A stretch of DNA of 63,357 nt, filler included, from Candidatus Zapsychrus exili (GTDB lineage Bacteria; Omnitrophota; Gorgyraeia; Zapsychrales; Zapsychraceae), in the NCBI GenBank assembly GCA_030765585.1. It is 5 parts of 5 records of this genome, joined end to end, with 100 filler letters (N's around TTAATTAATTAA, not from the genome) between each part and the next. Parts side by side here need not be neighbours in the genome. Positions count along the whole stretch, not along the records: positions 1 to 27,590 come from JAVCCJ010000027.1; 4 more parts are not named here. One strand, 5' to 3'. Below the pieces are notes generated by a model. The model did not search any database and was not told the origin of the DNA. It worked only from the letters and a program-made list of their open reading frames with translations. This document shows, piece after piece, positions 1,250 through 57,537 of the stretch. Numbering within the stretch: the first letter of the stretch is position 1; the number at the start of each line of letters is the position of its first letter. Position numbers and translations under genes: made by a program.

Positions 1250-4200
1250 TTAGTCTACCACTACCACTTCACCTTCTAATTGATCACGATATTTTTGCAG
1301 TTCCTCTTCATCGTACATAAGACCTTCTTTAAAATTACCGTAATTAAGCATTTTTATTTCATACTTAAGATCATCTATTTGCTTATCTTTTTCTGCAATT
1401 GTTTTCTTCATCTTACTTACATCTTGTTTTAACCCTTCTACTTCCAACTTAAACATATTTTCTTTTTCTTTAGAAGATGATATAAGAGCATCTTTTTTAT
1501 TAATTGCTCTTTTAAGCTTCTCTATTTCCGAATCTTTTGCGTTTAATTGTTTCTTTAAGAGAGCTAGCTCAGAATTTAATTTTCTTATAGTGCCTAAAGC
1601 CTCCACAAGTTGTTTTTCTAAAGAAGCTATTTTGTCGTTTAACTCTTTTATTCGAGTTTCATATTTAGCTTTACTATTGAGCATCTCTTGCTCTTTTGCA
1701 AAAACTTTATTTTCTAATTGCTTTATCTTGCTGTTTTTGCCTCTCACTTCAGCCTCAAGACTCAATACTTGTCTTCCTAAAGCATCCTTTTCTTCTTTGC
1801 AAACCCTATCTACATCAGATAATTGAGACTTCAAGTCAGCAACAGTTTTCTGGCTATTGGCCAGTTGATCCCTCAAAGAATCTATTTGACCATTTAAACC
1901 TTCAATTTGACCATTAAGAACACCTCTTACACTCTCAATTTCCCCTATCTTTGCAGCCAAGTCCTTCTTAAGACCACTTATCGCGTTGTCTTTATCTTGA
2001 ATCGTTTTCTCTAAATCAGCGATTCGTTCTTTGCAAACACCTTGCTCTTCTTTACAAGCCGTATTCGCATCTGACAATTTAGCCTTAAGGCCAGCAATAA
2101 TTTCTTGACTATCAGCTAATTGTTTTTTTAATGAGTCTATTTGATTATTAAACGCGCCGTTTGTACCGTCTAATTCTCTTACTTTTGCGACTATGTCTTT
2201 TTCAAGCCTATTTGCTTCGCTATTCTTTCCTGCAATAACTTTTTCTAGTTCAGAAATCTGCTTTCTTAGAGCATCTTTCTCATCGCTATATGCCTTACTT
2301 TTATTCGATAAATCATCCTTAAGGCCAGCAATAATTTCTTGACTATCGGCTAATTGTTTTTTTAATGAGTCTATTTGATCATTAAACGAGCCCTTTGCGC
2401 CGTCTAATTCTCTTGTTTTTACGATTATATCTTTTTCAAGTTTATTTGCTTCGCTATTCTTTCCTGCAATAACTTTTTCTAGTTCAGAAATCTGCTTTCT
2501 TAGAGCATCTTTCTCATCGCTATATGCCTTACTTTTATTCGATAAATCATCCTTAAGGCCATCTATTCTATTGTTTAGACTGTTTTCTTTTCTTTGGAAA
2601 CTTTCTTTTAAATCAGCTAATTTACGCTCCAAACTTTCAACTAAAGCTGTTGCAGAAGAAGCATTGTTCTTTTCTTTATTAAGTTCCGCTGTTAAACCTT
2701 TTGTTTTTTCCTTACATTCTCTTTTAGCTCTTGCTAGCTCAGCTTCAAGCTCTTTTATCCTTTTAGAACTCGGAACTTGTTTGCTTTTCTCTTTTGCTAA
2801 TTGAGTCTTTAAGTCTTCTATTTCGCTTTTTAAACTAGCGATAGCATTATCTTTTGATACTAAACTTGAACTAAGATCGTTTATCTTAACATTAAGAGAG
2901 TAAACATCGCTCTTAAGAGAAGCTATCACTCCATCTGCATCTTCACGCATTTTGGTTTTTTCTTCAAGTAACAATTTAAGAGAAGTTATCTCAACGCTTA
3001 GCTTATCTTTTTCTTCTTTTAATTCTTGATTTTCATTTGCTAATGTTTGACTCTTTAATAAAAGATCTTGCTCTTTTTTTGCAAAATCTAAAGAAGCCTC
3101 ATCTATTTCCTTATTCTTCTCTTTTAACTGTTTTGCAAGGTCATCTATTTTCATCTCTAAGGTCTTAACAACGTCCTCATCGCCAAGTATTTCTTGATTC
3201 TTTTGAGCTATCTGCCCTTCCAGCCCTAATATATTATCTGAATATGCTGCAAGCTCATTTTCTAATACACTTATCTTAATCTCATAATCTATTTTTTGTT
3301 TTTCTAAAGAAGCGATAGCGTCTTTCATTTGATCGTTCAGCAACGCTATATCATTTTCTGAATCTTTTAAAGCAACATCTTTTTCATCAAGGCTTTGTTT
3401 TAAATCAACTATTTGCGCATCAAGTATAGCTGCTTTATCTTTAAAAACCTTTAATTGCGCATCACTGCTTATATTTTGTTTTTCTAGAAAAGCTATTTTT
3501 TCTTTAAGCAGCTTAAGTTCTTGTTCAAACTTCTGTTTTGCAATAGCAAATCTTTTGCCAAATATATCTTCAGCGCTAACACTTGTATCATCTAATTGCT
3601 TTTCAAGCAAAGATACATTACTTAAAGCACTTTTAAGACTTGTCTGGCTTATAGCGTATTCCTGTTTTAAATTAAAATACTCACTTTGACTTTTTAATGC
3701 GCCTTCTGTTAAACTCACTATTTGCGTATCTTTTTGCTTATTTTGTCCTTCAAGCAAAGCTACCTTTTGATTTAGCCAATCAATTTCGCCTTGTATTTTT
3801 ATTGCTTTTAAAGTATATTCTTTGTCCAAATGCATTAATTCTGCCGAAAGAAGCGCATTTTCTTTTTCTTTCGCATCTATTTTTCCTTCCAACAAAGCAA
3901 CCATATCTCTATACTTATCTAAATCGTCATTTAAAACTAATGAGCTTTCATCATATTTACTAAGCGATATATTAGCTCCTTTAAGATCAAATTTAGCGTT
4001 AGATAACTTTTTTTCTAGTGCTGCTAAAATATCTTCATAACCTAATGCATCATCTTCATTGCTATCAAATTTGGCACGAAGTTTAGCTAATTCAGAGGAC
4101 AGGTTGTCATTTCTACTTTCTGCGGAATTTAAATCTTTTAATGCTTGTTCAAGCGCATCTTCCTTGATCTTTAAGTTAACCAAAGAATCTTTTAACTCTT

Positions 4201-5341
4201 TGCTTAGATCATTTAAGCCTTCTTCAGATGCTAAAATATCATTGTTCAGCTTTAATATTTCTTCATCTTTACCTGTAAGTTTACCCGCAAACATAGACGC
4301 CTTAGAAAGTTCTCCATCTTTTAAAAGAAGTGATTGTTCTTTTTCTGATAATTTTTGCCTTAAATCAGCCACCTTGTCTTCTGCTCTCGCAAGTCTTTTC
4401 TTTAAATCATCAATTTCATATATCCTATCTTTTGCATCAGCATTCGTATCTCTTAATTGCGATTTTATTTCCCTTAGAACGTTTTCCATTTCTTCTATAC
4501 GATTATTTGCATCTTCTAAATCTTTATTTTTTGACATCAAACTTGTTCTAGCGCCTATAAGGTCGCCTTTAAGGCCATCTATATCTTCTTGATTTGCTAA
4601 AAGCGCATCTTTTTCTTTTATTGCTTTATTTAAAGCGAGTAACTTTTCAACAAGAGAATCAACCTTGCCCTCTAGTCCATCTATACTATCTTGCTTAGTT
4701 TTATTACCTTCTTTTTCTTTTATCAGTAAATTCCTTAAATAACCTATCTCATCTGCCATTTTCTTCTTTAAAAGTCGTGCTGCATTATTGGACTCATCTT
4801 CCATTTTACGTATTATTTCATTCTTCTGCCTTAAAAGCTCTTCAAAGTGAAATTCTGAATTAGATGCTTTTTCATCAAGACTAGCTATTTTATTCTTATT
4901 TGACTTTAACTCTCTTGTTTTTTGTTCTAACTCTATTCTAAGACTTGTAAAATCTTCCTTCAGAATAAGTATCTTTTTGTCTCTATCAACAAGACTGGCT
5001 TCAATTCTTGCAAGTATTGACTTAAGCTCATTAAAGTTTACATTTGAACCCTTTTTAAGCAGTTCGCGTCCAAGTTCATCAATAAAATATTCCAATTGGC
5101 TAATGACCCTAAAAAGAGCTTTATTATGCCTTGTGAAATCTACCATTTTCTCTTGATAGTCTTCAATTTCAGATATTATTACAGCAGAACACGAGCTTGT
5201 TGTCTCTATGCTTCTAGTATTAGTGGTTAAAGCATGTGCGGGAATGCACAAAAATAAAAGTGCAAAAGAAGTTAAACAAAATATTAAACACAGTTTACTC
5301 AAGTTTTTCAAAGAAAGTTCTTTCATTGGTAGGTTCTCCAT
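1250..5341 (-). CDS. Large secreted/membrane-anchored coiled-coil protein (1363 aa)
   Basis: N-terminal hydrophobic signal ending AHA; continuous heptad-rich K/E/L sequence; no Walker motifs, so not SMC. Confidence 0.75.
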   Translation of the reverse strand: MENLPMKELSLKNLSKLCLIFCLTSFALLFLCIPAHALTTNTRSIETTSSCSAVIISEIEDYQEKMVDFTRHNKALFRVISQLEYFIDELGRELLKKGSNVNFNELKSILARIEASLVDRDKKILILKEDFTSLRIELEQKTRELKSNKNKIASLDEKASNSEFHFEELLRQKNEIIRKMEDESNNAARLLKKKMADEIGYLRNLLIKEKEGNKTKQDSIDGLEGKVDSLVEKLLALNKAIKEKDALLANQEDIDGLKGDLIGARTSLMSKNKDLEDANNRIEEMENVLREIKSQLRDTNADAKDRIYEIDDLKKRLARAEDKVADLRQKLSEKEQSLLLKDGELSKASMFAGKLTGKDEEILKLNNDILASEEGLNDLSKELKDSLVNLKIKEDALEQALKDLNSAESRNDNLSSELAKLRAKFDSNEDDALGYEDILAALEKKLSNAKFDLKGANISLSKYDESSLVLNDDLDKYRDMVALLEGKIDAKEKENALLSAELMHLDKEYTLKAIKIQGEIDWLNQKVALLEGQNKQKDTQIVSLTEGALKSQSEYFNLKQEYAISQTSLKSALSNVSLLEKQLDDTSVSAEDIFGKRFAIAKQKFEQELKLLKEKIAFLEKQNISSDAQLKVFKDKAAILDAQIVDLKQSLDEKDVALKDSENDIALLNDQMKDAIASLEKQKIDYEIKISVLENELAAYSDNILGLEGQIAQKNQEILGDEDVVKTLEMKIDDLAKQLKEKNKEIDEASLDFAKKEQDLLLKSQTLANENQELKEEKDKLSVEITSLKLLLEEKTKMREDADGVIASLKSDVYSLNVKINDLSSSLVSKDNAIASLKSEIEDLKTQLAKEKSKQVPSSKRIKELEAELARAKRECKEKTKGLTAELNKEKNNASSATALVESLERKLADLKESFQRKENSLNNRIDGLKDDLSNKSKAYSDEKDALRKQISELEKVIAGKNSEANKLEKDIIVKTRELDGAKGSFNDQIDSLKKQLADSQEIIAGLKDDLSNKSKAYSDEKDALRKQISELEKVIAGKNSEANRLEKDIVAKVRELDGTNGAFNNQIDSLKKQLADSQEIIAGLKAKLSDANTACKEEQGVCKERIADLEKTIQDKDNAISGLKKDLAAKIGEIESVRGVLNGQIEGLNGQIDSLRDQLANSQKTVADLKSQLSDVDRVCKEEKDALGRQVLSLEAEVRGKNSKIKQLENKVFAKEQEMLNSKAKYETRIKELNDKIASLEKQLVEALGTIRKLNSELALLKKQLNAKDSEIEKLKRAINKKDALISSSKEKENMFKLEVEGLKQDVSKMKKTIAEKDKQIDDLKYEIKMLNYGNFKEGLMYDEEELQKYRDQLEGEVVVVD
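2083..2560. repeat. Intragenic tandem duplication, 234-bp (78-aa) unit
   Basis: CCTTAAGGCC recurs at 2083, 2317 and 2551; two near-identical GLKDDLSNKSKAYSDEK...SQEIIA units. Confidence 0.9.
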
Positions 5342-5507
5342 AGTTATGTAAAATATACAGGTTATTGTAAATCGTGGCTGGATTTATAATGCAGTAATAT
5401 AAATATTCTTTATTACACTGTTCAATGAGTATACCGTTTTTTAAAATAGTGTCAAGAAATATATATCTAGGGGATATGGGCGTAAAAACACATCAAATAA
5501 GCACTTT

Positions 5508-5829: not shown

Positions 5830-6699
5830 CTACAAGCCTCTAAAAATTTCATCCCGAAGTTTAACATTGCCATCAATAGCTAGTTTAAGCATATTGAGTA
5901 GCTTTTCCTTATCTTTTGGAAATCTTCCCTCTAAAGACAAGTAGTTTGAAGCATGATTTGAGCGAAATATAGTTTTGTTTAACTCAAGCCCTTTTATGAT
6001 ATCATAAGCTTCACGCACAAGCTCTGTAGAATTTAATTCTTTAAATTTACCTGTTTCCGCTTGTTTATACAGCGGTGTATCCTTAATTAACATAAGTGAT
6101 AGAAAAGACAAATATCTTGGTTGCATTTTATTAAGCGCTTCTATTGTATCTCTTACGTGAACATCAGAACATTGCACTCCGCCTAAACCTAAAAGCACAA
6201 TAACAGACGATTTTATATTTGCATCATCTGCCATTCTAACCGCTTCTATCATCTCCTCTACGCTTGAGCGCTTCTTACAGGCATCTAAAACCTTTTGACT
6301 ACCACTTTCAAGCCCCATATAGATTAAGTTTAAATTATGATTTCTTAATTCTCTTAATTCGTCGCTCGTTCTTTTTGTAATATTATAACCATTTGCATAA
6401 CTTGCAATACGACTAAGTTTGAGGAAGCTTTTATTTATAAGTTTTAAAATAGGAACAAGTCTCTTGTTGTTTAGTGCTAAGGCATCTCCGTCGAGTAGGA
6501 ATATTTTCCTAACATCAGGATAAAGATCTGCAGCCTCTTTTATATCATATTCTATATCAGACTCCTCCATCACACCAAACGGCTTATTAGCATACGCACC
6601 ACAAAAAGTGCAAGTATTTGAAGAGCATCCTACAGTTATTTGTAAAAGCAAACTATTTGCTTCAGATGGGGGTCTAATTATTGGCTGGATAAGCAGCAT
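5830..6699 (-). CDS. Radical SAM protein
   Basis: GCSSNTCTFC cysteine triad, GLESG and RSNHASNYL motifs. Confidence 0.9.
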   Translation of the reverse strand: MLLIQPIIRPPSEANSLLLQITVGCSSNTCTFCGAYANKPFGVMEESDIEYDIKEAADLYPDVRKIFLLDGDALALNNKRLVPILKLINKSFLKLSRIASYANGYNITKRTSDELRELRNHNLNLIYMGLESGSQKVLDACKKRSSVEEMIEAVRMADDANIKSSVIVLLGLGGVQCSDVHVRDTIEALNKMQPRYLSFLSLMLIKDTPLYKQAETGKFKELNSTELVREAYDIIKGLELNKTIFRSNHASNYLSLEGRFPKDKEKLLNMLKLAIDGNVKLRDEIFRGL

Positions 6700-9074: not shown

Positions 9075-12000
9075 TTAATCTTTTTTTATCGCTAGTGACA
9101 ACTGCAAATTATCATCACTATTGTCGCTATTATTATCATCGCTTTGGTCTACAAGCCCTAATAATGGCAAGACGCTATCAATTGGGGTTATATTAATAAT
9201 TACTGGAACAAATCCTTTAATATCCATATCAAGCAGAGGTTCAAAAGCCTTTGAGTCAAAGATAATATCATCGCCACTTCCTTGAACGTCGAACTCGATG
9301 CTATTTAAGTCGATACCGCCAATATCAGAAACCATTGCTTTGTCCGTAAACTCAAAACCATGTTCTTTTGTTAATTTTTGTAGCGGAACAAGAAAAAATT
9401 TATAACAATCATGTAAAATAGAATGTCCTGTTTTCTTGAAAGAAATTTCCATAATACTGTCGTTTGATAAATCAATTATATCATCTATTAACTGATTATA
9501 TCTCTCAGAGAATTCTATGATATCAAGAATTCTTTCCTCAGTTCGCACACTAATCTCTTTTATTGCTCCTTCATAATTCCCGTTTATAGACTCCTGTAAA
9601 TTATCTTTCATATTTATAAAAGTAGGAAATGCCAACCCGGGTCCCTCCATAAAAGAATAATAAAAATCGCTCACACCATGAGCATTTATTGCTTTTTTCA
9701 AATCACCATTTAAGTCAAAGACAACAAGTCTCTGTTGGTCATAATTATTCTTATTATCAACCTTAATTATTTCCATTTTTCTATATATTAAATCAAACTT
9801 TTCCTCTATATTGTTACAAATAACAAAAAACTCCTTCAACATTTCTTCACGTCCTTCATATGTCCCTTCTTCTGAAAAATTCTTTATTGCATCTTTATTG
9901 CTTAAATACCATTCTTTTAAAGCCTCAACATCATCACTAAGACTTTTATTGTTAATTTTTTCGTTATTTATTTCACGCATTCGTTCAGCAGCAACTTGAT
10001 AAAACTTTAAAGTGTATACAATATCCCCCTGTCTTTTTTTAACATTAATAAGCTGCTTATCGCTAAAATTCGGCATATTAAGCGTATTGTCCCCTGCTAG
10101 CATGGCATTATCTTTGCCCATGCTACCAAACAAGTCATCAGCTATAAAATTTTGTTCTCCTGAAACCTGAAACCTTGAACCTGACACCTGTTTTTCAGCC
10201 ACCATCGCTTTATCAATACTTTCTCCATCTAAAATAGGAGCGTCCACATCCGTCTTCTTCGAATCTTCAATAACTTTTTTTGTTAATTGTAAATATTTAT
10301 TATTACCAGACTCAACAAAAACCAATTTAATAATATCAGAATCTTTCATATCTTCTTTAATCTCAGAAATAAGCCAAAGTGTCCTTCCTTTTAATATCTT
10401 TATAGCTACCTTAAAAGAACCTTTTCTTTTTAACATTATCTTATGCAATCCATCAGTATCGTAAATCGTACGTTCCCCTAAAATATGACTAAAAGCTTGC
10501 TCTACTAAAATAACATTATCACTTGAATCCTCCAAAACCCTAAGAACGCCAAATTGCTCACTATAAGCAAATTGACCTTTTTTAAGAGACGTAAATGCAC
10601 CATCAAGATAATATTTTCCTGGTTCCATAGAAGTGGTCATCATGGAGTTATCTTCACCCGTACTACTAAACAAGTCGTCAACTATAAGCTTTTGTTCTCT
10701 TGAAACCTGAAACCTTGAACCTAACACCTGTTTTTCTGTCACCATCGCTTTATCAGAAGATGCATATTCCAAAGTCATTTCTTCCAGAGGAACAATAATT
10801 GCATCTAACGCGTCATGGTCTACTATCGCGGCTGCCAATGTTTCTCCACCATTATCTGAATCCTTATATAAAGGTGAAGATAGAGATATAGGCTTAAATA
10901 TAACCCCGAAAGACTCTCTTCTTTTTTTCTTTAAAACATCAGGTAACTTTGATTTTAAGAATGTTTCAAGGCCAATTCCCTTGGCTGCATGCCCATTAGA
11001 TGAATATAATTTTATAAGATCATACAATTCCAAAAATCCATCATGAACCAGCTCATCAAAATCGTTAGTATCTATATCTGCAAAAGCTGTTTTAAAATTT
11101 CTCTTATACATTATCAACGATACTTCTTCTTTGACTAACCATATATATTGCTCAACTAAGACGGCCAGCTTATTATCATCTCCGCCTCTAACAGCATCTA
11201 TTACATCTTTTTCTTCACCTTTAGACAAGACCTCTTGATCGTTATAATAATCTCTTATTGCCAAATGATTACGTCTATATGCTTTAGATATCCCCTCTAG
11301 ACTTCCAATCCTTTCAAGCGCTTTATATGCAGTTAAAATACTAACCCCAAAATATTTTGCTATTCTATGTAAATCAGCCTTAGGATGTTGTTTTCTGTAT
11401 AATTTTAAACTAACTGAATCGATCTTATAATTGCGTCCCCCACCCTTTCTTGTGTAAGCAACATTATGATATTTAATAGCGTCTATTATTGTCTCTACGC
11501 AAGTCTCAAAATGATCTGCTATTTGCTGCTGTATATCTTTAGGATTTGCATCTATATATTCTTGTAACTCTTTCTTTCCTATAATACGCTCACCCTCACG
11601 AGTTTTAAGAATATAGGGAATATTATGCTTCCTTATTGATTTTGAAATAGCTGAATCTACCACCCCAAAATGCTGCGCTATTTTATTTAAATTTGCCTCA
11701 GGATATCTTTTTATATAATTGCTAAGCTTTTTTAAATCTACTTTATATTGACCATGCACCTTCGGTGTATAATCAACTCCATAAAAACTAATAGCATCTC
11801 TTATTGTTTCTTTATGAACTCCGAAACTATCCGCTATTTGCTGTTGAGTAAAATCAGGATGTTTAAGAATAAAACCTTTTAACTTACCTTGATTTACAAT
11901 CCTTTCTCCATCGTAACTTTTAATTGTGTAAGAAATGCTATGTTTTTTTATCCTACGCGATATTGTGGCTCTACTAACTCCAAAATAAAAAGCTATCTCA

Positions 12001-14627
12001 TCTATGTTCTTTTTTGGATTTCTTTTTATATATCTAATTAACTTGTCTATATCTAATATGTCCGAGGCTACACCTTTATAATCAATTCCACTTCTTTCAA
12101 TAGCTCGCTTTATGGTTTCTCTTCCAACTTTAAATTGTTTAGCAAGCTTCGTTAGAGATATCTTTGGGTTAACTAAAATGACAACTCTTAATTTATCAAT
12201 ATCAATATCAGCAACTGTTCTATCTTTAAAGTCAATATCATAAACAACTACTGACTTCCCAACCGCTTCAATCGTATATCCAAAATAATTTCCTATTGTT
12301 CTTAACAAAGCATCCTCGTGCGTTTCTATATATTCTCTTAAAAGCTCTTCTGACACTAAAGTCTCAAGGCGATGTTTGGGCGCATACTCTATTCCGTAAA
12401 GCTTAAAGGCTCGTCTTAAAGTATCCCTACTAACACCAAAATGATCATCTATGTTTTGCTTACTTATATAAGGATTCGCTTTTATATAACTTTTAAGTTC
12501 TATCTCATCGACAATTGATAAAAGAGCATTATTGTTAGTGGCTCCTTTAGATGTTGCCACCATTGCATGATCACCTTTAATATTTTTCAAATGACGTTTC
12601 TTAGTAGTAAGCACCATACGCTTTGAAGCGCTACGCCTCTCATTAGAAATCTTTTCTATGTCATAACGTATATAAGCCCCATATTCATCCGCCTCTGCAC
12701 TAAGATCAATTGATCTAACGTCATAGTTGTCATAAGTTAAGAAAAACTTCCCATCTTCTTTCATGAGAGGATGAATAATATAAAACAAATAACCAAATAA
12801 ATTTTGTGCAGGGGTGATGTAGTCCATTCCATTTGTACTAATTAAGAAATCAATAGAATTCTTTTCAAAAAATTCTCCAAAATCAAAGGCTTCTGCAAAA
12901 ATCAGGCGATCAATAGTGGTACCATTATTTATCCAACCTTGAAAAATAATATCACCAAATCCATGGTATTTAACATTTTTAATATCTGGATAATATTTCT
13001 TCATTGTATCCTTAAAATCTTGAAGCATATTAAGCTCTTCTTCTAATTCTCCAATTCCCCAATCAACAACATTAATAATCTGATCTGGATTTTTCATTGC
13101 CTTAGCAGCTATTTTGTGTACAAAGACTGGCGCACCGCCCCTCTTTTCCTTAGGGAAAAAGATAAGATCAGCATAAGGCGCATTTATTCCTAAGGATGAA
13201 TATCCTTGCGGGACAGCATTTCGAAGAAACTTTATCTTATTTTTTTCATCTTTTGTAATCGTGTATGCATTACTCTTGCTCTCTGAAAGAGCAGTTACAA
13301 TTTCTTCTAACTTATCTTGAGACGCAACAGACTCGATAATAGTGCCAGTTGAAACTTGAACTCTTGAAAGAACAATATCTGAGGCTCTTGTCACCATCGC
13401 CTTGTCGTTATCCGAAAACTCTAACCTAACCTCCATTGTAGATTCGGCCCCAACTTCTGAATTCTTTACCGTCATTGCATTATCAGTTCTTTTGACAGTC
13501 AGCGCCTGATCTTTAAAACCACCTGAGAAATATTTCTTAGGAATTATTTGCTTTGCGACAGGGTCGTATTCTTGCTTGATGTAATTGTAGACACCTTTTT
13601 TGTAAGCATCCATGTATTGATTGTAGATATCTTCTGGTTTCGTCATTGCGAGCGCATTTTGCGAAGCAATCTCATAATGAGAGATTGCCACGTCGGCTTG
13701 ATTTTCTGACTGCCTCCTCGCAATGACATCAGAAGATTTGATGCCTTCTACTTTATTTTTATCAATATAAATTTGCGACAAGATACTATTCTTAACCTTT
13801 TGCTTATACCATTTAGCAAGAATAAGTGAATGATATATCTGGCGAAGCGATGCAAAATGTTCACCTTCATTTACTTCGCGCTCTATAGCAGGGATTATTA
13901 TTTCTTTAATAATGGAAGATGAATTGTTTTGTTTTTTTCTATCTTCTATCTTCAACCCTCTATCCTCTTGCAAATAATCTTGTTCCAGCATTACTTTCAT
14001 CTTTGACTCAACTACATAAACCGTTGCGCCATTTTCATAAATTGTCGCACTCTCTGGAAGTATCCATACTTTATTAAACGTATCAGTAGGAATACTCGAA
14101 ACTCCATACTTATCTTTGGCTTGCTTATATATTTTTTCCCAAAATTTCTTACCCAGCTCTCCTTCTGGATGCATCAAAGATGCTGTTAATTGTTTTAGAA
14201 TATAATCTTGAGCTAAAAGATCCATTCCAAGCTCTGTCTTGCCTAAAGCATCTGGAACGATTCGGTCGCGTTCTGTTGGGGATAAATTAACCCACAAATC
14301 TCCTTTAGGCACTGTCATTGAAGCTAGAAAGTAGTTTACTAGTCTTTTAGATTCTTTTTTAAGATCTTCTCCTTTTAGGCTAGAATGACCATTATCAATA
14401 ATAAAATCAAACTTAAACGGGTCTTCTGGATGGACTGTCATACCTCTTAGCAAGGTTGGGACATGTGCAGAGCTTTGGGTAAGCATCGCGCCTGACACAG
14501 GCATATTTACCACATTCTGGGCAAAAGACAGCGAAGGCGCAATTGAGCTAAAGATTAGCAAGAAAACAAGTAAAAAACAAATAGCAGAATGTACAGGTTT
14601 TTGCTTGTTTTTGTTAAATAAGGTCAT
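9075..14627 (-). CDS. Giant modular secreted protein (1850 aa): conserved N-domain, DxAM-separated cargo modules (MTase-like, 8xHTH, sigma70-like, two unknown), GGIDLN C-domain
   Basis: Signal peptide (..SLSFAQ); N-domain aligns with 54304-57537; 8 DxAM/DNSM motifs; recognizable cargo motifs. Confidence 0.8.
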   Translation of the reverse strand: MTLFNKNKQKPVHSAICFLLVFLLIFSSIAPSLSFAQNVVNMPVSGAMLTQSSAHVPTLLRGMTVHPEDPFKFDFIIDNGHSSLKGEDLKKESKRLVNYFLASMTVPKGDLWVNLSPTERDRIVPDALGKTELGMDLLAQDYILKQLTASLMHPEGELGKKFWEKIYKQAKDKYGVSSIPTDTFNKVWILPESATIYENGATVYVVESKMKVMLEQDYLQEDRGLKIEDRKKQNNSSSIIKEIIIPAIEREVNEGEHFASLRQIYHSLILAKWYKQKVKNSILSQIYIDKNKVEGIKSSDVIARRQSENQADVAISHYEIASQNALAMTKPEDIYNQYMDAYKKGVYNYIKQEYDPVAKQIIPKKYFSGGFKDQALTVKRTDNAMTVKNSEVGAESTMEVRLEFSDNDKAMVTRASDIVLSRVQVSTGTIIESVASQDKLEEIVTALSESKSNAYTITKDEKNKIKFLRNAVPQGYSSLGINAPYADLIFFPKEKRGGAPVFVHKIAAKAMKNPDQIINVVDWGIGELEEELNMLQDFKDTMKKYYPDIKNVKYHGFGDIIFQGWINNGTTIDRLIFAEAFDFGEFFEKNSIDFLISTNGMDYITPAQNLFGYLFYIIHPLMKEDGKFFLTYDNYDVRSIDLSAEADEYGAYIRYDIEKISNERRSASKRMVLTTKKRHLKNIKGDHAMVATSKGATNNNALLSIVDEIELKSYIKANPYISKQNIDDHFGVSRDTLRRAFKLYGIEYAPKHRLETLVSEELLREYIETHEDALLRTIGNYFGYTIEAVGKSVVVYDIDFKDRTVADIDIDKLRVVILVNPKISLTKLAKQFKVGRETIKRAIERSGIDYKGVASDILDIDKLIRYIKRNPKKNIDEIAFYFGVSRATISRRIKKHSISYTIKSYDGERIVNQGKLKGFILKHPDFTQQQIADSFGVHKETIRDAISFYGVDYTPKVHGQYKVDLKKLSNYIKRYPEANLNKIAQHFGVVDSAISKSIRKHNIPYILKTREGERIIGKKELQEYIDANPKDIQQQIADHFETCVETIIDAIKYHNVAYTRKGGGRNYKIDSVSLKLYRKQHPKADLHRIAKYFGVSILTAYKALERIGSLEGISKAYRRNHLAIRDYYNDQEVLSKGEEKDVIDAVRGGDDNKLAVLVEQYIWLVKEEVSLIMYKRNFKTAFADIDTNDFDELVHDGFLELYDLIKLYSSNGHAAKGIGLETFLKSKLPDVLKKKRRESFGVIFKPISLSSPLYKDSDNGGETLAAAIVDHDALDAIIVPLEEMTLEYASSDKAMVTEKQVLGSRFQVSREQKLIVDDLFSSTGEDNSMMTTSMEPGKYYLDGAFTSLKKGQFAYSEQFGVLRVLEDSSDNVILVEQAFSHILGERTIYDTDGLHKIMLKRKGSFKVAIKILKGRTLWLISEIKEDMKDSDIIKLVFVESGNNKYLQLTKKVIEDSKKTDVDAPILDGESIDKAMVAEKQVSGSRFQVSGEQNFIADDLFGSMGKDNAMLAGDNTLNMPNFSDKQLINVKKRQGDIVYTLKFYQVAAERMREINNEKINNKSLSDDVEALKEWYLSNKDAIKNFSEEGTYEGREEMLKEFFVICNNIEEKFDLIYRKMEIIKVDNKNNYDQQRLVVFDLNGDLKKAINAHGVSDFYYSFMEGPGLAFPTFINMKDNLQESINGNYEGAIKEISVRTEERILDIIEFSERYNQLIDDIIDLSNDSIMEISFKKTGHSILHDCYKFFLVPLQKLTKEHGFEFTDKAMVSDIGGIDLNSIEFDVQGSGDDIIFDSKAFEPLLDMDIKGFVPVIINITPIDSVLPLLGLVDQSDDNNSDNSDDNLQLSLAIKKD
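10108..10754. repeat. Duplicated ~107-bp inter-module linker (10108-10214 and 10648-10754)
   Basis: Offset 540 bp; both encode DKAMVxEKQVxGSRFQVSxEQxxIxDDLFxSxGxDNxM; contain TGAAACC-type heptamers. Confidence 0.9.
13642..13727. repeat. In-frame palindromic element (RPE/REP-like) copy A
   Basis: GTCATTGCGAG...GAAGCAATCTC...GAGATTGCCAC...CTCGCAATGAC; encodes VIARRQSENQADVAISHYEIASQNALAMT. Confidence 0.85.
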
Positions 14628-54303: not shown

Positions 54304-57300
54304 AATATTAGGGTCACTTTCGGATATTTTATTAATATCCACCTGATGATAATAAATTGTTTTAGGTTGTTTAAAATTATCAAGAAATGAGATTTTATAC
54401 ATTTTGTAAGGAAAATTTTTAACCAACACAACATCAACTTCTGTATATCCACGATATTCCAAATTTATTTTAATAAAAGGCTCCATACCTATTTGCGGTT
54501 TTACGAAAGAATACAGTATATTACTCTGCAAAACACTTGGAATAAATCTAGCATGCTCAATATATCCTATATAAAGTTTCTTCATAATATCAAAAGCCTC
54601 TTGGCCAGATATATTGCCAAAATTACGCTCATCAAGAGTCATCCATTTTAAATCTTTAATTTCAAACGGCACGCGAAATGGCATTAAATTAATAAAATGG
54701 ACTTCTTCTAAATTTGGAAACATATCGAATATCTTTAAGTCAAGTCCACCAGGATAAATTGCTTTCCTTGATTGAAACTGAAAATTCTCATAATAATTAG
54801 CGCGCGACAAAAGAAAACTTTTTGCCTCAGACAACCTACCGCTTGCATATAATTTCTCAAAAGTTCTCTTATCCCGCTCCGAAGAAAAAAGCCTCAATAA
54901 ATTCTTAATTCCTAAAGGAAATTCTTTAGTTCTAAAATTATTCTGAACATAACCTTGCTCTTCTGTTATCATTGCATTATCAAAACCGTAAGCTTTGTCC
55001 TTATTGTAAACAGATACGAGAATCGATTTATAATCTCCGCTAAAGGCAACATCATGTGCTGAATCATCAAGTTTCAAAGGAACACTTACATCTCTACCAT
55101 CTATTCTCTTAAACTTTAAATAACTAAAAATATCCATATAATAGAGAAAGAAGTGTTTGATATTCTTATCAAACTGCTGCTCCAGTGTAGCTGTTCCAGA
55201 AAAAGATTCTTTTACAATATCAGACATCTCAGCCATACCTCTGCTATTAGTACTACCAGAATTTATACTAGTATAACAAAGACAAAAGGCATAAATACCA
55301 TCGATAGAAACAAACTCATTATATATGTCTGCTATTATCTTTACTTTGTCTTTAATGTAAGGAAAGATATTGTCTCCGAACAAAACTAAATCAAACTTTT
55401 TACCAGAAAGTTTCTCTGATCTTTGTTGCTCATTCTCAATATCTAAAATAACAACCTTGATTCTTTTTTCTGCCTCTGCAATTTCTCCCGAAGAATACCC
55501 TTTCTTTTTCAAATTCGTATAAATCTCAGATCTATAATTCCACAGCTCGTTTTCTTTATTAACAGCCTGTATCTCTAGATTAGGATACTTAATTGCCATC
55601 TCAACAGTAGCTACCCCAAAGCCTACACCTACAAAAAGTACTTTTTGTTTAGAGTCTTTTCTTTCTTCTAAATCTTTTGTTATATTGTAAATTTCATCAA
55701 GATTTGAATAATCCCTATTAAACCAATTTGGATGTTTCTCGTAGACTGAATTAAAATTAAGTGCTATTCTAAAAACATCTCCTTCAATTTCTGGATATCC
55801 TTTATTTTTTATCGCTATATCATAATTTTTCTTAACTAATAAAGCTTGTTTTTCTGGAGTTAAACCAATAGTTTTAAATCCATATCTACTAAAACGCTCT
55901 ATAAACACCTGATTATTAGTATCGCCAACAATGCCTGTATAGCCAGCATTTTTTATAGCGTCAATAGTCTCAGCAGAAAAAAACTGGCCTAAGAGATACA
56001 AGATATTTCTTGGCTTAATTCCGTCAATATGCATATCAAGAACTTTATCTCCAGCCTCAAATAGGCCTTCGTACTCTTTAACATCATATATAAATTTTTC
56101 CTCAACTATAAGCTTCGCACCTCCCCTTTCTAAATAAAAATCCTCAATAATCTCCTCACCTTCATAATGAAATAAATTCATTTTAAAACCAAGCCTCATG
56201 AATGCTTCATAATTCTTATCTCCAGAAATCATTCTTCCAGGAAAGGTTCTATCGTCATATTTTTCTTTAAAAGCTTTCTTGTTTTTAACATTTGTGTTAC
56301 TAAAAATACCTTTTATATTCAGTAAAGAATCTGGCTTGATAGATATCATTGCGTAATCATTTGTAATCTCAAGCGGAACATTTAAAGTAAGTCCACCGGA
56401 GAAATATTTGCGTGGCACAATTTCTTGAGCCTTAGGATCATATTCTTCTTTTATTTGATTAAAGGCGCCCTCCTTAAAAGCCTGTAAGTATTTTTCGTAT
56501 ATCTTGTCTGGGGTCATCATTGCGAGCGTATTTTGCGAAGCAATCTCATCGCTAGAGATTGCCACGTCGCTTGCGCTCCTCGCAATGACAGGATCAGAAA
56601 GCCCTTCTATCTTTTTTCTATTAGAATAATTTTTATTTAAAATACTACTTTTAAGCTTTTTCTTATACCAAGTCGCAAGTATCAAAGAATTATATATCTG
56701 ACGAAGTGGCGCAAAATGCGCACCCTCATTTACTTCACGTTCTAGTTCGGGAATAATCACAGACTTGATTATATTTGTTGCGTCATTGCGAGGAGTCGAA
56801 GACGACGAAGCAATCTCATCTTCTTCTGAGATTGCCGCGCTCTGCTTTGCAGAGCTCGCAATGACATCCTCTAGATATTCTTCTTCTAGCAGTACTTTTA
56901 ATTTGGCTTCAACCACAAACGCTCGATCACCGTTTTCATACACAACAGCCTTTTCTGGCACAATCCAAACACGACTAAGCGCATCCGTTGGTATATCTGT
57001 TGTTCCATATTGCTCTTTCGCTTGAGCGTATATCTTATCCCAAAACTTCTTACCCGCCTCTGTCTCTGGGTGCATTAAAGATGAGGTTATTTGTTTTAAG
57101 ATATAATCTTGTAACAAAAGGTCTTTCCCCATTTGAGTAGACCCGAACTCATCAGAAACTATTCTATTAGGCTGTTTAGGATTTAGATTGACCCACAAAT
57201 CACTTTCAGGCATTGTCAAAGACGCCAGAAAATATCTAATAAGTTTATCTGCTTCAGCCTTTAAATCATCGCCTTGAAATGAAGAATCACCCTTATCTAA

Positions 57301-57537
57301 TAAAAAATCAAATTCAAAAGGCTTTTGAGGATTAACAATAATTCCTTTTAACATAGCTGGTTGTATAAGCATTTCGCTAGGCTGCGCTAAACTAGTGGCT
57401 GTTAAAGAAAGGCTAATATTTTGAGCATAAGAATTACTAGGAAAGACAAACTGGGACGAGGCAAAAGCTATTATTAATATAGATACAATAGCTTTATAAA
57501 ATAACTTAACTTTTTTATTTTTAATATATAACAACAT
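54304..57537 (-). CDS. Giant modular secreted protein, paralog of 9075-14627, 3'-truncated
   Basis: Signal ..SYAQ; shared N-domain (PFEFDFLLD, DLWVNL, QDYILKQ, VWIVPE, EVNEG.HFA.LRQIY, KYFSGG); DYAM and DNAM; MTase module VLFVGVGFG. Confidence 0.85.
56516..56589. repeat. In-frame palindromic element copy B
   Basis: ATCATTGCGAG...GAAGCAATCTC...GAGATTGCCAC...CTCGCAATGAC; encodes VIARSASDVAISSDEIASQNTLAMM. Confidence 0.85.
56782..56865. repeat. In-frame palindromic element copy C
   Basis: GTCATTGCGAG...GAAGCAATCTC...GAGATTGCCGC...CTCGCAATGAC; encodes VIASSAKQSAAISEEDEIASSSSTPRND. Confidence 0.85.

Follow-up and report, generated by a model that had tools for sequence, protein, structure and literature searches.

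The subject of this study is a gene on the minus strand, at 9075-14627, of a window from the genome of Candidatus Zapsychrus exili (Omnitrophota), the window being the whole stretch of DNA that was analysed (63,357 nucleotides). It consists of several contigs of one assembly (2.04 Mb, 129 contigs, 96% complete), concatenated with runs of N between them, and gene models were taken as frames from stop to stop. The gene (hereafter, the target) has an ATG start and an open frame of 1,850 codons plus stop. Between a conserved N-terminal head and a conserved C-terminal tail, it encodes a variable array of modules, or cargo, punctuated by the short sequence D-x-A-M. Judging from its counts, codon usage and placement, DxAM is genuine, is under selection and sits where modules meet. 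We give an even chance to the interpretation that the gene encodes a Sec-exported, cysteine-purged modular carrier with junctions that are cut by a lineage-specific endopeptidase.

The junction motif and the modules it separates

The target contains seven D.AM motifs versus 0.19 expected, and none of 20,000 shuffles reached seven (the maximum was three); a paralog in the same window, at 54304-57537, has two versus 0.09 expected, a number reached by 76 of 20,000 shuffles. Across the 24 open reading frames (ORFs) of this family in the genome there are 81 motifs versus 2.7 expected, and the remaining 3,590 ORFs of 80 amino acids or more contain 57 versus 43.7 expected. A first-pass annotation, made from the sequence alone, had listed eight D-x-[AS]-M motifs in the target and two in the paralog; all ten were recovered, with coordinates that differ by 2-5 nucleotides.

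The consensus of 85 D-x-[AS]-M sites is D-[KNQE]-A-M-[VILM(T)]-[AST]-[DE]. The position after the methionine is occupied by V (31), I (18), L (18), M (9) or T (7), the second by A (29), T (22) or S (16), and the third by E (23) or D (21); the ten residues before the aspartate show no preference. At 81 sites, aspartate is encoded by GAT (61) or GAC (20) and alanine by GCA (41), GCG (28), GCT (9) or GCC (3), and this synonymous variation therefore points to selection on the protein level.

Eighteen homologs were scanned whole with Pfam; 14 of these bear domains, and none of 83 junction motifs lies inside a Pfam stretch, compared to 9.2 expected, in agreement with the earlier claim that the motifs fall at module borders. 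Pfam profiles start 3-17 residues past the junction Met; the corresponding module residue and profile position are 13 and 1 for PGK, 17 and 6 for enolase, 7 and 4 for guanylate kinase, 18 and 1 for PFK, and 55 and 1 for PGI. Compared to the housekeeping enolase, the native start of the carried enolase lies ~9 residues past the Met, and its last helix runs directly into ...AANDKA|M. The profile starts and the enolase alignment thus place the junction a few residues past one fold and 3-14 residues before the next. The first-pass annotation had proposed that released modules begin with Met; the border position stands, but native enzymes start 3-14 residues later and, as far as these alignments tell, the junction Met is part of a seven-residue element, D-x-A-M-[VILM]-[AST]-[DE], rather than a retained start of fused enzymes. 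Several paralogs also contain peptides of 20-36 amino acids with a motif at both ends. The target has three such spacers, and the two that are 34 amino acids long and 71% identical each stand directly before a cargo module.

The cargo was identified by splitting paralogs at the junction Met and scanning 63 modules of 100 amino acids or more with Pfam. For example, one paralog (L004, contig C80:14983-23955) reads head, two GAPDH domains, 105 amino acids, PGK, enolase, 103 amino acids, a class-II-aldolase-like domain and tail; another (L006, C83:3439-9519) reads head, a UDPGP-like domain, PFK and PGI, its PFK module having an additional match to the RNA polymerase alpha C-terminal domain (E 2.7e-6). 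L001 and L002 carry UDPGP, PPDK/PEP-utiliser parts and guanylate kinase, and further paralogs carry methyltransferases, GNAT, GHKL ATPases and NUDIX; many modules are unmatched. Separate PGK, enolase, PGI, GAPDH and PFK genes exist in the genome, 25-39% identical to the carried enzymes, and the latter are thus extra copies. Both carried GAPDH copies keep SNASCTTN, and the enolase keeps SHRSGET, GDDL, KVNQ and the DE.GF site; by these motifs, the carried GAPDH and enolase look active. The housekeeping GAPDH gene (C25:20832-21836) sits between two carrier-family genes (C25:17243-26965).

In the target itself, an array of helix-turn-helix (HTH) units spans amino acids 705-1106 (unit of ~52 amino acids; six units found by BLAST and two more by eye). 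Modules A, C and D gave nothing significant in Pfam (E up to 1) or PDB, and two candidates for module A, spermidine synthase (PDB, E 0.17) and methyltransferase (E 0.97), were rejected as non-significant. A search of the target cargo against 5.8 billion proteins returned no relatives besides the target itself and the tail of a paralog. Tandem DNA repeats within the gene amount to three trivial rows.

L004 and L006 share 89% identity in their heads (nucleotides ~95-100% up to KYFSGG), and the similarity fades in the linker and stops at the first junction, behind which lie lower and upper glycolysis, respectively. Cargo exchange between paralogs, which had been proposed from the first reading, is well supported by this sequence comparison. 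Likewise, the target and the paralog at 54304-57537 (minus strand) share 202 of 415 residues (49%, BLASTP E 2e-120); the match ends at KYFSGG, with no further significant BLASTP match beyond it, just as the first-pass annotation had described for a signal peptide and shared N-domain followed by unrelated sequence. This paralog is truncated at the start of contig C43, which has an exact overlap of 18 nucleotides with the end of C80, and the frame runs through (...ESDPNI). The continuation on C80 (L018, C80:25323-27791) has four more DxAM motifs and a GGINLN tail. Because of this overlap and the continuous frame, the paralog is probably ~1,890 amino acids long, with six junctions and a tail.

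The head was found by phmmer in 17 ORFs, i.e., 16 of 599 amino acids or more (E from 1.2e-250 for the target itself to 8e-97) and one fragment of 91 amino acids at a contig end (1.1e-17). The tail was found by phmmer in 15 ORFs of the assembly. The 24 family ORFs total 32,364 amino acids, or 97 kb (4.7% of the assembly). Headless ORFs with a tail are located at contig ends, or follow one in-frame stop or a frameshift. Interruptions affect five family genes, with DxAM-bearing ORFs on both sides of each break: three by single in-frame stops (C39:1810-1812, C67:1614-1616 and C83:3436-3438) and two by frame overlaps (C119, about 6046-6083; C73, about 10692-10774). Decay, variation within the population or separate neighbouring genes could each explain these breaks; recoding was rejected as an explanation for the stops, which are of three different kinds (TAA, TAG and TGA).

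A profile built from 16 heads matched 8,300 cluster representatives at E up to 0.001 (6,672 at 1e-30 or better), and the homolog counts given here refer to the 150 best-scoring of these, plus 20 loci picked for length. In all of the best 150, the head starts within the first 55 residues, spanning 1 to about 360, in proteins of 420-4,969 amino acids; the GGIDL-type tail terminates 103 of them. These proteins contain 273 D.AM motifs versus 21 expected, a 13-fold enrichment over background of the kind expected from the first reading, and 87 of them have at least one motif. In an unbiased enrichment analysis of short patterns (three or four residues) across 141 cargo regions, the top patterns were D.AM (167 versus 14.2) and SSPV (46 versus 1.2). 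In other lineages, [AGS]SSP[VILAM] (SSPh) occupies DxAM positions, including the one directly before GGIDLN. The two motifs are mostly exclusive among the best 150: 65 proteins have DxAM only, 36 have SSPh only, 14 have both and 35 neither. The same proteins gave 520 pieces, and clustering of the modules of 60 amino acids or more among them yielded a tail cluster of 79, followed by clusters of 6, 3, 3 and 3; recurrence of cargo is thus rare. In the homologs scanned whole, cargo is likewise of cytoplasm type and includes protein kinase, PP2C, receiver domain, HTH_3, GNAT, PGK, PGM and uridine kinase, as well as CYTH, UPRTase, cytidylate kinase, transaldolase, and HEAT and TPR repeats. The head is present in 26 of 201 sampled genomes of the phylum, namely in eight of nine other genomes of the same order and in four further families of the class; up to 62 head candidates were seen at first look in some genomes.

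Export signal, cysteine content and the conserved ends

The N-terminus of the target, MTLFNKNKQKPVHSAICFLLVFLLIFSSIAPSLSFA|QN, begins with KNKQK and is laid out like a type I signal peptide (n, h and c regions), as assessed by eye and hydropathy. All 16 aligned paralogs share this layout and keep [SAP]-[FY]-A-Q at the corresponding site, A36 and Q37 being nearly invariant. The only hydrophobic stretches of the target are the N-terminal one and that of the tail, and a second hydrophobic segment after the head exists in only two head-bearing paralogs (C25, amino acid 412; C73, amino acid 390).

Cysteine makes up 46 of 32,364 residues (0.14%) in the family versus 1.17% in 994 other ORFs of 250 amino acids or more, an 8-fold depletion. 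Each carried GAPDH domain has the catalytic cysteine only, versus six cysteines in the housekeeping GAPDH; no cysteine occurs in the carried PGK, enolase, PGI or guanylate kinase. As a yardstick, 123 other ORFs that were selected by a crude rule (signal-peptide-like start, no later hydrophobic segment) have a median of 0.24% cysteine in the mature part. The family content is near this value and is thus the composition of the organism's exported proteins. Together, the Sec-type signal and the cysteine depletion make export across the cytoplasmic membrane quite probable. It should be noted that four adjacent signal-peptide ORFs of 474-627 amino acids at C13:5727-13283 contain 7.7-9.8% cysteine (35-59 residues each), in contrast to the otherwise cysteine-poor exported proteins of this genome.

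The conserved ends bracket cytoplasm-type cargo in a family of paralogs with both ends, and the GGIDLN...GFVPVIINITP domain that closes the target (its last 86 amino acids) is the tail shared by the 15 ORFs; in both respects, the first reading was right. In a search of the whole target against Pfam and NCBIfam (E up to 0.1), neither head nor tail was matched. An AlphaFold2 model of the head, based on 24 sequences, has a mean pLDDT of 60 (core 70-85), the least confident part being the one that holds an in-frame palindromic element with terminal arms GTCATTGCGAG / CTCGCAATGAC and inner hairpin GCAATCTC / GAGATTGC. Each copy of this element adds ~30 residues (...VIARRQSENQADVAISHYEIASQNALAMT...) to head-domain loops; there is one copy in the target and two in the paralog. 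For the head fold, a Foldseek search of PDB gave no hit at E up to 0.001, a PDB sequence profile search gave no matches, the best VIA-align hit among 48,161 chains had a Z of 3.5, and ESM Atlas contained only Omnitrophota hypothetical clusters (scores 0.87-0.88). Invariant polar residues in 26 heads from 21 genomes are N114, T131, D141, K145, N253, R262, Q263 and K275.

The tail modelled alone has no confident fold (pLDDT 56, pTM 0.18). A complex of head and tail was predicted with an ipSAE of 0.37, compared to 0.00 for the best of three controls; at least 62% of contacts agree between runs, and the partner pLDDT is at least 46. In a benchmark of ipSAE, the mark was reached by 116 of 157 solved complexes and two of 215 mismatches, and values of 0.60 or under belong to only 18 of those 157 complexes plus both passing mismatches. 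We treat a contact of head and tail as a weak, model-based lead.

Proposed cleavage and competing interpretations

In the carrier interpretation, the cleavable signal peptide would take the chain over the cytoplasmic membrane via Sec; the constant head and tail would be handling parts for targeting, anchoring or onward secretion, and the self-contained cytoplasm-type proteins between them would be cargo. In the simplest case, the lineage-specific factor that recognises the junction would be an endopeptidase, and the modules would be separated after export. Such a junction-reading endopeptidase would account for the invariant junction residues, the lineage switch of the motif and the double-bounded spacers; for cleavage at the junction, we put the chance slightly short of even.

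Several observations weigh against this interpretation. DxAM is missing from 63 of the best 150 homologs and both motifs from 35 of them; with [AGS]SSP[VIL] in some lineages, DxAM is not the family-wide delimiter that it was first taken to be. Six long members from the same order (2,861-5,424 amino acids) have 0-1 DxAM, with no recurrent motif found in its place, and the border of two GAPDH domains within one module is motif-less. A search for a protease found none that recurs beside family genes (72 neighbour ORFs) and none among the cargo modules of this genome; the co-occurring protease that the first-pass annotation suggested looking for did not appear, and no neighbour of any kind recurs among these 72 flanking ORFs. 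There is no invariant Ser, His or Cys in the same 26 heads, and the head is therefore no recognisable protease. The tail stretch may be a membrane segment, with a different topology. Finally, the site of cargo action is unexplained, because there is no ADP or NAD+ for glycolytic enzymes outside the cytoplasm.

As to candidate proteases, an HExxH in one cargo module on contig C39 was rejected, having no family support. Cutting by Peptidase_C39 after the GG of KYFSGG and GGIDLN is an idea. The only Peptidase_C39 match of the genome (C24:38231-38473) lies near the N-terminus of an ORF of 9,937 amino acids outside the window, a giant membrane protein in which the junction-like sequences DEAMVAK, DAAMLSE, DAAMTSG and DDAMLAA cluster at amino acids 5768-6263. 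This cluster and the C39 match are a hint that the giant protein may be connected with the carrier family.

The foremost alternative, possible yet doubtful, is an exported but uncut multi-enzyme protein, organised as beads on a string and held in the envelope or at the surface by head and tail; DxAM and SSPh would then act, with the same doubtful standing, as a structural element between modules (a hinge or helix cap) or as the place where a chaperone or secretion factor docks. This would be consistent with the many members that manage without either motif, with the failure to find a protease, with the weakly predicted head-tail contact, and with a tiny upstream linker, there being four residues (SDKA) from LPGIVAL, which we take to be the C-terminal end of the carried PGK, to the motif D. 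However, invariance of D, A and M would not be needed for a plain hinge, the use of two unrelated motifs by different lineages at equivalent positions is a better fit to a co-evolving reader, and the double-bounded spacers of 20-36 amino acids resemble processing spacers.

An extension of the carrier interpretation, speculative and in our estimate rather unlikely, is a "portable cytoplasm", in which an ultra-small, probably predatory or epibiotic cell exports enzyme strings that a dedicated protease cuts at DxAM (or SSPh) junctions and that act in the prey or host, or in its lysate. Since glycolysis, nucleotide kinases and DNA binders depend on the cofactors of a cytoplasm, a prey cell or its lysate would suit them as the place of action. 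The cargo of cysteine-free glycolytic enzymes, nucleotide and protein kinases, phosphatases, methyltransferases and DNA-binding arrays would use the ADP, NAD+ and DNA of the victim and convert its contents to products taken up by the predator; the target gene would deliver an eight-HTH DNA binder. As far as the available parts of these publications go, a predatory lifestyle has been proposed for relatives (PMC10066038), and intron RNA of a predator was reported in dead archaeal cells (PMC13153191); neither is evidence on the carrier family. If both processing and delivery were confirmed, the family would represent a new way for bacteria to prey on or parasitise other cells.

It is improbable that the protein stays inside, with the N-terminal helix as an uncleaved anchor or unused, and works as a membrane-tethered cytoplasmic multi-enzyme scaffold. 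The dependence of the cargo on cytoplasmic cofactors speaks for this, the second hydrophobic segment of the C25 and C73 paralogs would bring cargo back to the cytoplasm, and the available part of a 2026 preprint on long Omnitrophota proteins discusses cytoplasm-facing topologies for many of them (bioRxiv 10.64898/2026.06.07.730766). Conversely, the second segment is absent from most paralogs, the conserved [SAP]-[FY]-A-Q speaks for export, as does the cysteine depletion, which is like that of the genome's other signal-peptide proteins, and the cytoplasm is already served by housekeeping copies.

We consider it very improbable that the ATGs of DxAM are internal translation starts, the gene being a stop-less operon that also gives separate cytoplasmic proteins. 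Met begins every module, and a purine precedes the ATG in 69 of 81 sites, compared to 53% GCR among the Ala codons of the genome (13,877 of 26,294). However, a core resembling the Shine-Dalgarno sequence is found 5' of only 11 of 81 junctions, D and A are kept through synonymous codons, conservation extends past the Met, and the SSP[VIL] junction has no Met. As raw counts in the best 150 homologs, D.AL (82) and D.AV (71) show no visible enrichment next to D.AM (273), Leu and Val being commoner than Met. An assembly or annotation artefact, or decaying pseudogene fusions, to which the interrupted genes on C39, C67, C83, C119 and C73 might point, is hardly credible in view of the 1850-codon open frame, the 8,300 representatives with an N-terminal head and the conserved catalytic motifs.

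Known systems and the layout of the gene

A literature search found no description of the family and nothing that pairs Omnitrophota with polyprotein; GGIDLN, KYFSGG and D-x-A-M do not occur in the searched literature, the matches to "dxam" being on unrelated topics. Head, tail and motif are unmentioned in the available portions of West-Roberts et al. 2023, the 2026 long-protein preprint and Seymour et al. 2023. According to the available text of the first of these (bioRxiv 10.1101/2023.11.21.568195), glycolytic-type domains of giant Omnitrophota proteins are predicted to be extracellular; cleavage of the giants is suspected, and unknown cleavage points are an obstacle to analysis. Topologies with a signal peptide and transmembrane helices are reported for long Omnitrophota proteins in the portion at hand of the second (bioRxiv 10.64898/2026.06.07.730766).

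Judged by these portions, the Archaeovorin-type or "multi-enzyme" giants are like the carrier family in belonging to the same phylum, in having a signal peptide or membrane association, and in the kind of domains they carry (TPI, PGI, FBPase, PGM, aldolase and PPDK, predicted to be extracellular). They have 30,000 amino acids or more, many transmembrane helices, and SecA-like and C39 domains, whereas the carriers have 0.4-5 thousand amino acids, one signal peptide, a head and tail of their own, and a defined junction. The target, with 1850 amino acids, lacks the features of the Archaeovorin type (20-30 thousand amino acids, many transmembrane helices, SecA-like, C39). The junction motif (DxAM, or SSPh in other lineages) is a testable candidate for the missing information on cleavage points. 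Exported extra copies of GAPDH, PGK, enolase, PFK and PGI, with no non-catalytic cysteines, would be contrary to the usual rule that such enzymes are confined to the cytoplasm, and cysteine-free enzymes with a junction are potential parts for protein engineering.

In MARTX toxins, conserved ends bracket exchangeable effectors that are released by cuts in linkers; these toxins use type I secretion without a Sec signal and have glycine-rich repeats and a built-in Peptidase_C80. The carrier family shares the conserved ends and variable array, and differs in its Sec-type signal and in cargo of housekeeping type rather than toxins. Pfam shows no RTX-type repeat family in the target; Peptidase_C80 and the ATP/ADP translocase (TLC) had no matches in the genome, but the control searches matched in no genome either, so these two results are uninformative. 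Cargo of the type IX secretion system, a Bacteroidota system, including gingipain polyproteins, has a Sec signal and a conserved C-terminal module of ~80-90 amino acids on diverse proteins, some of which are processed. The Sec-type signal and the tail of 86 amino acids are similar; however, Por_Secre_tail models of Pfam and NCBIfam did not match the whole target at E up to 0.1.

The logic proposed here (one targeting signal, many proteins, short linkers) has its nearest parallel in polyproteins that Euglena and dinoflagellates send to the plastid (LHCP, RuBisCO small subunit), with conserved decapeptide linkers, a dedicated protease and cleavage shown experimentally. These are eukaryotic and repeat one protein, whereas the carriers have different enzymes and a putative cleavage. 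Adhesin paralogs P97/P102 of Mycoplasma hyopneumoniae are cut at S/T-X-F|X-D/E; similar to the carriers, they are exported paralogs with a short shared motif, in their case at processing sites, and they differ in being adhesins with another motif and without a constant head and tail. A polymorphic toxin of the Rhs or CdiA type was rejected, since the C-terminus is the conserved part and there is no toxin family and no recurrent small neighbour. Sortase and Exosortase_EpsH had no match in this 96%-complete assembly (controls were positive in three genomes and one genome, respectively), and the dockerin of cellulosomes had no match in the target.

Table 1. Features of the target gene and of its paralog in the window.
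Feature	Position	Strand	Basis
Whole gene: signal peptide, head, four cargo modules, three short spacers, tail	9075..14627	-	Sequence
Signal peptide, amino acids (aa) 1-37 (K-rich start, 19-aa hydrophobic core, S-F-A|Q)	14517..14627	-	Sequence reading, Kyte-Doolittle 2.48
Conserved head domain, aa 38-370 (~333 aa), KYFSGG end	13518..14516	-	Paralog alignment, profiles, models
Palindromic repeat element, in frame, in head-domain loop; arms GTCATTGCGAG / CTCGCAATGAC	13642..13727	-	
Junction 1, DNAM, aa 382-385	13473..13484	-	Motif scan
Spacer, 26 aa, junction on either side	13398..13475	-	
Junction 2, DKAM, aa 408-411	13395..13406	-	Motif scan
Cargo module A, 278 aa, no family match	12564..13397	-	Pfam/PDB searches
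Junction 3, DHAM, aa 686-689	12561..12572	-	Motif scan
Cargo module B, 606 aa: ~8 tandem HTH units, then ~190 aa unmatched	10746..12563	-	
Junction 4, DKAM, aa 1292-1295	10743..10754	-	Motif scan
Spacer, 34 aa, 71% identical to the spacer at 10104-10205	10644..10745	-	
Junction 5, DNSM (Ser variant), aa 1326-1329	10641..10652	-	Motif scan
Cargo module C, 146 aa, unmatched	10206..10643	-	Pfam/PDB searches
Junction 6, DKAM, aa 1472-1475	10203..10214	-	Motif scan
Second 34-aa spacer	10104..10205	-	
Junction 7, DNAM, aa 1506-1509	10101..10112	-	Motif scan
Cargo module D, 256 aa, unmatched	9336..10103	-	Pfam/PDB searches
Junction 8, DKAM, aa 1762-1765, abuts tail	9333..9344	-	Motif scan
Conserved tail, last 86 aa: GGIDLN, GF-PVIINITP-LLGL hydrophobic stretch (Kyte-Doolittle 1.69), acidic end	9078..9335	-	
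Paralog, N-terminal 1078 aa, truncated by contig end	54304..57537	-	
Paralog, head	56392..57537	-	
Paralog, junction DYAM	56347..56358	-	Motif scan
Paralog, junction DNAM	54970..54981	-	Motif scan
Paralog, palindromic element, two in-frame copies	56782..56865, 56517..56588	-	

The surroundings of the target comprise genes for a coiled-coil protein, a radical SAM protein, an SSF symporter, DUF485, a MazE-like protein and LexA, with DUF485 and the SSF symporter downstream. Three sequencing runs contain the stretch or part of it, all of DNA, with no RNA run among those listed. Elsewhere in the window, an ORF of 1,377 amino acids (1253-5383, minus strand) has a signal-peptide-like start and Pfam matches of coiled-coil type only, to the crescentin rod and intermediate filament models, both below their cut-offs.

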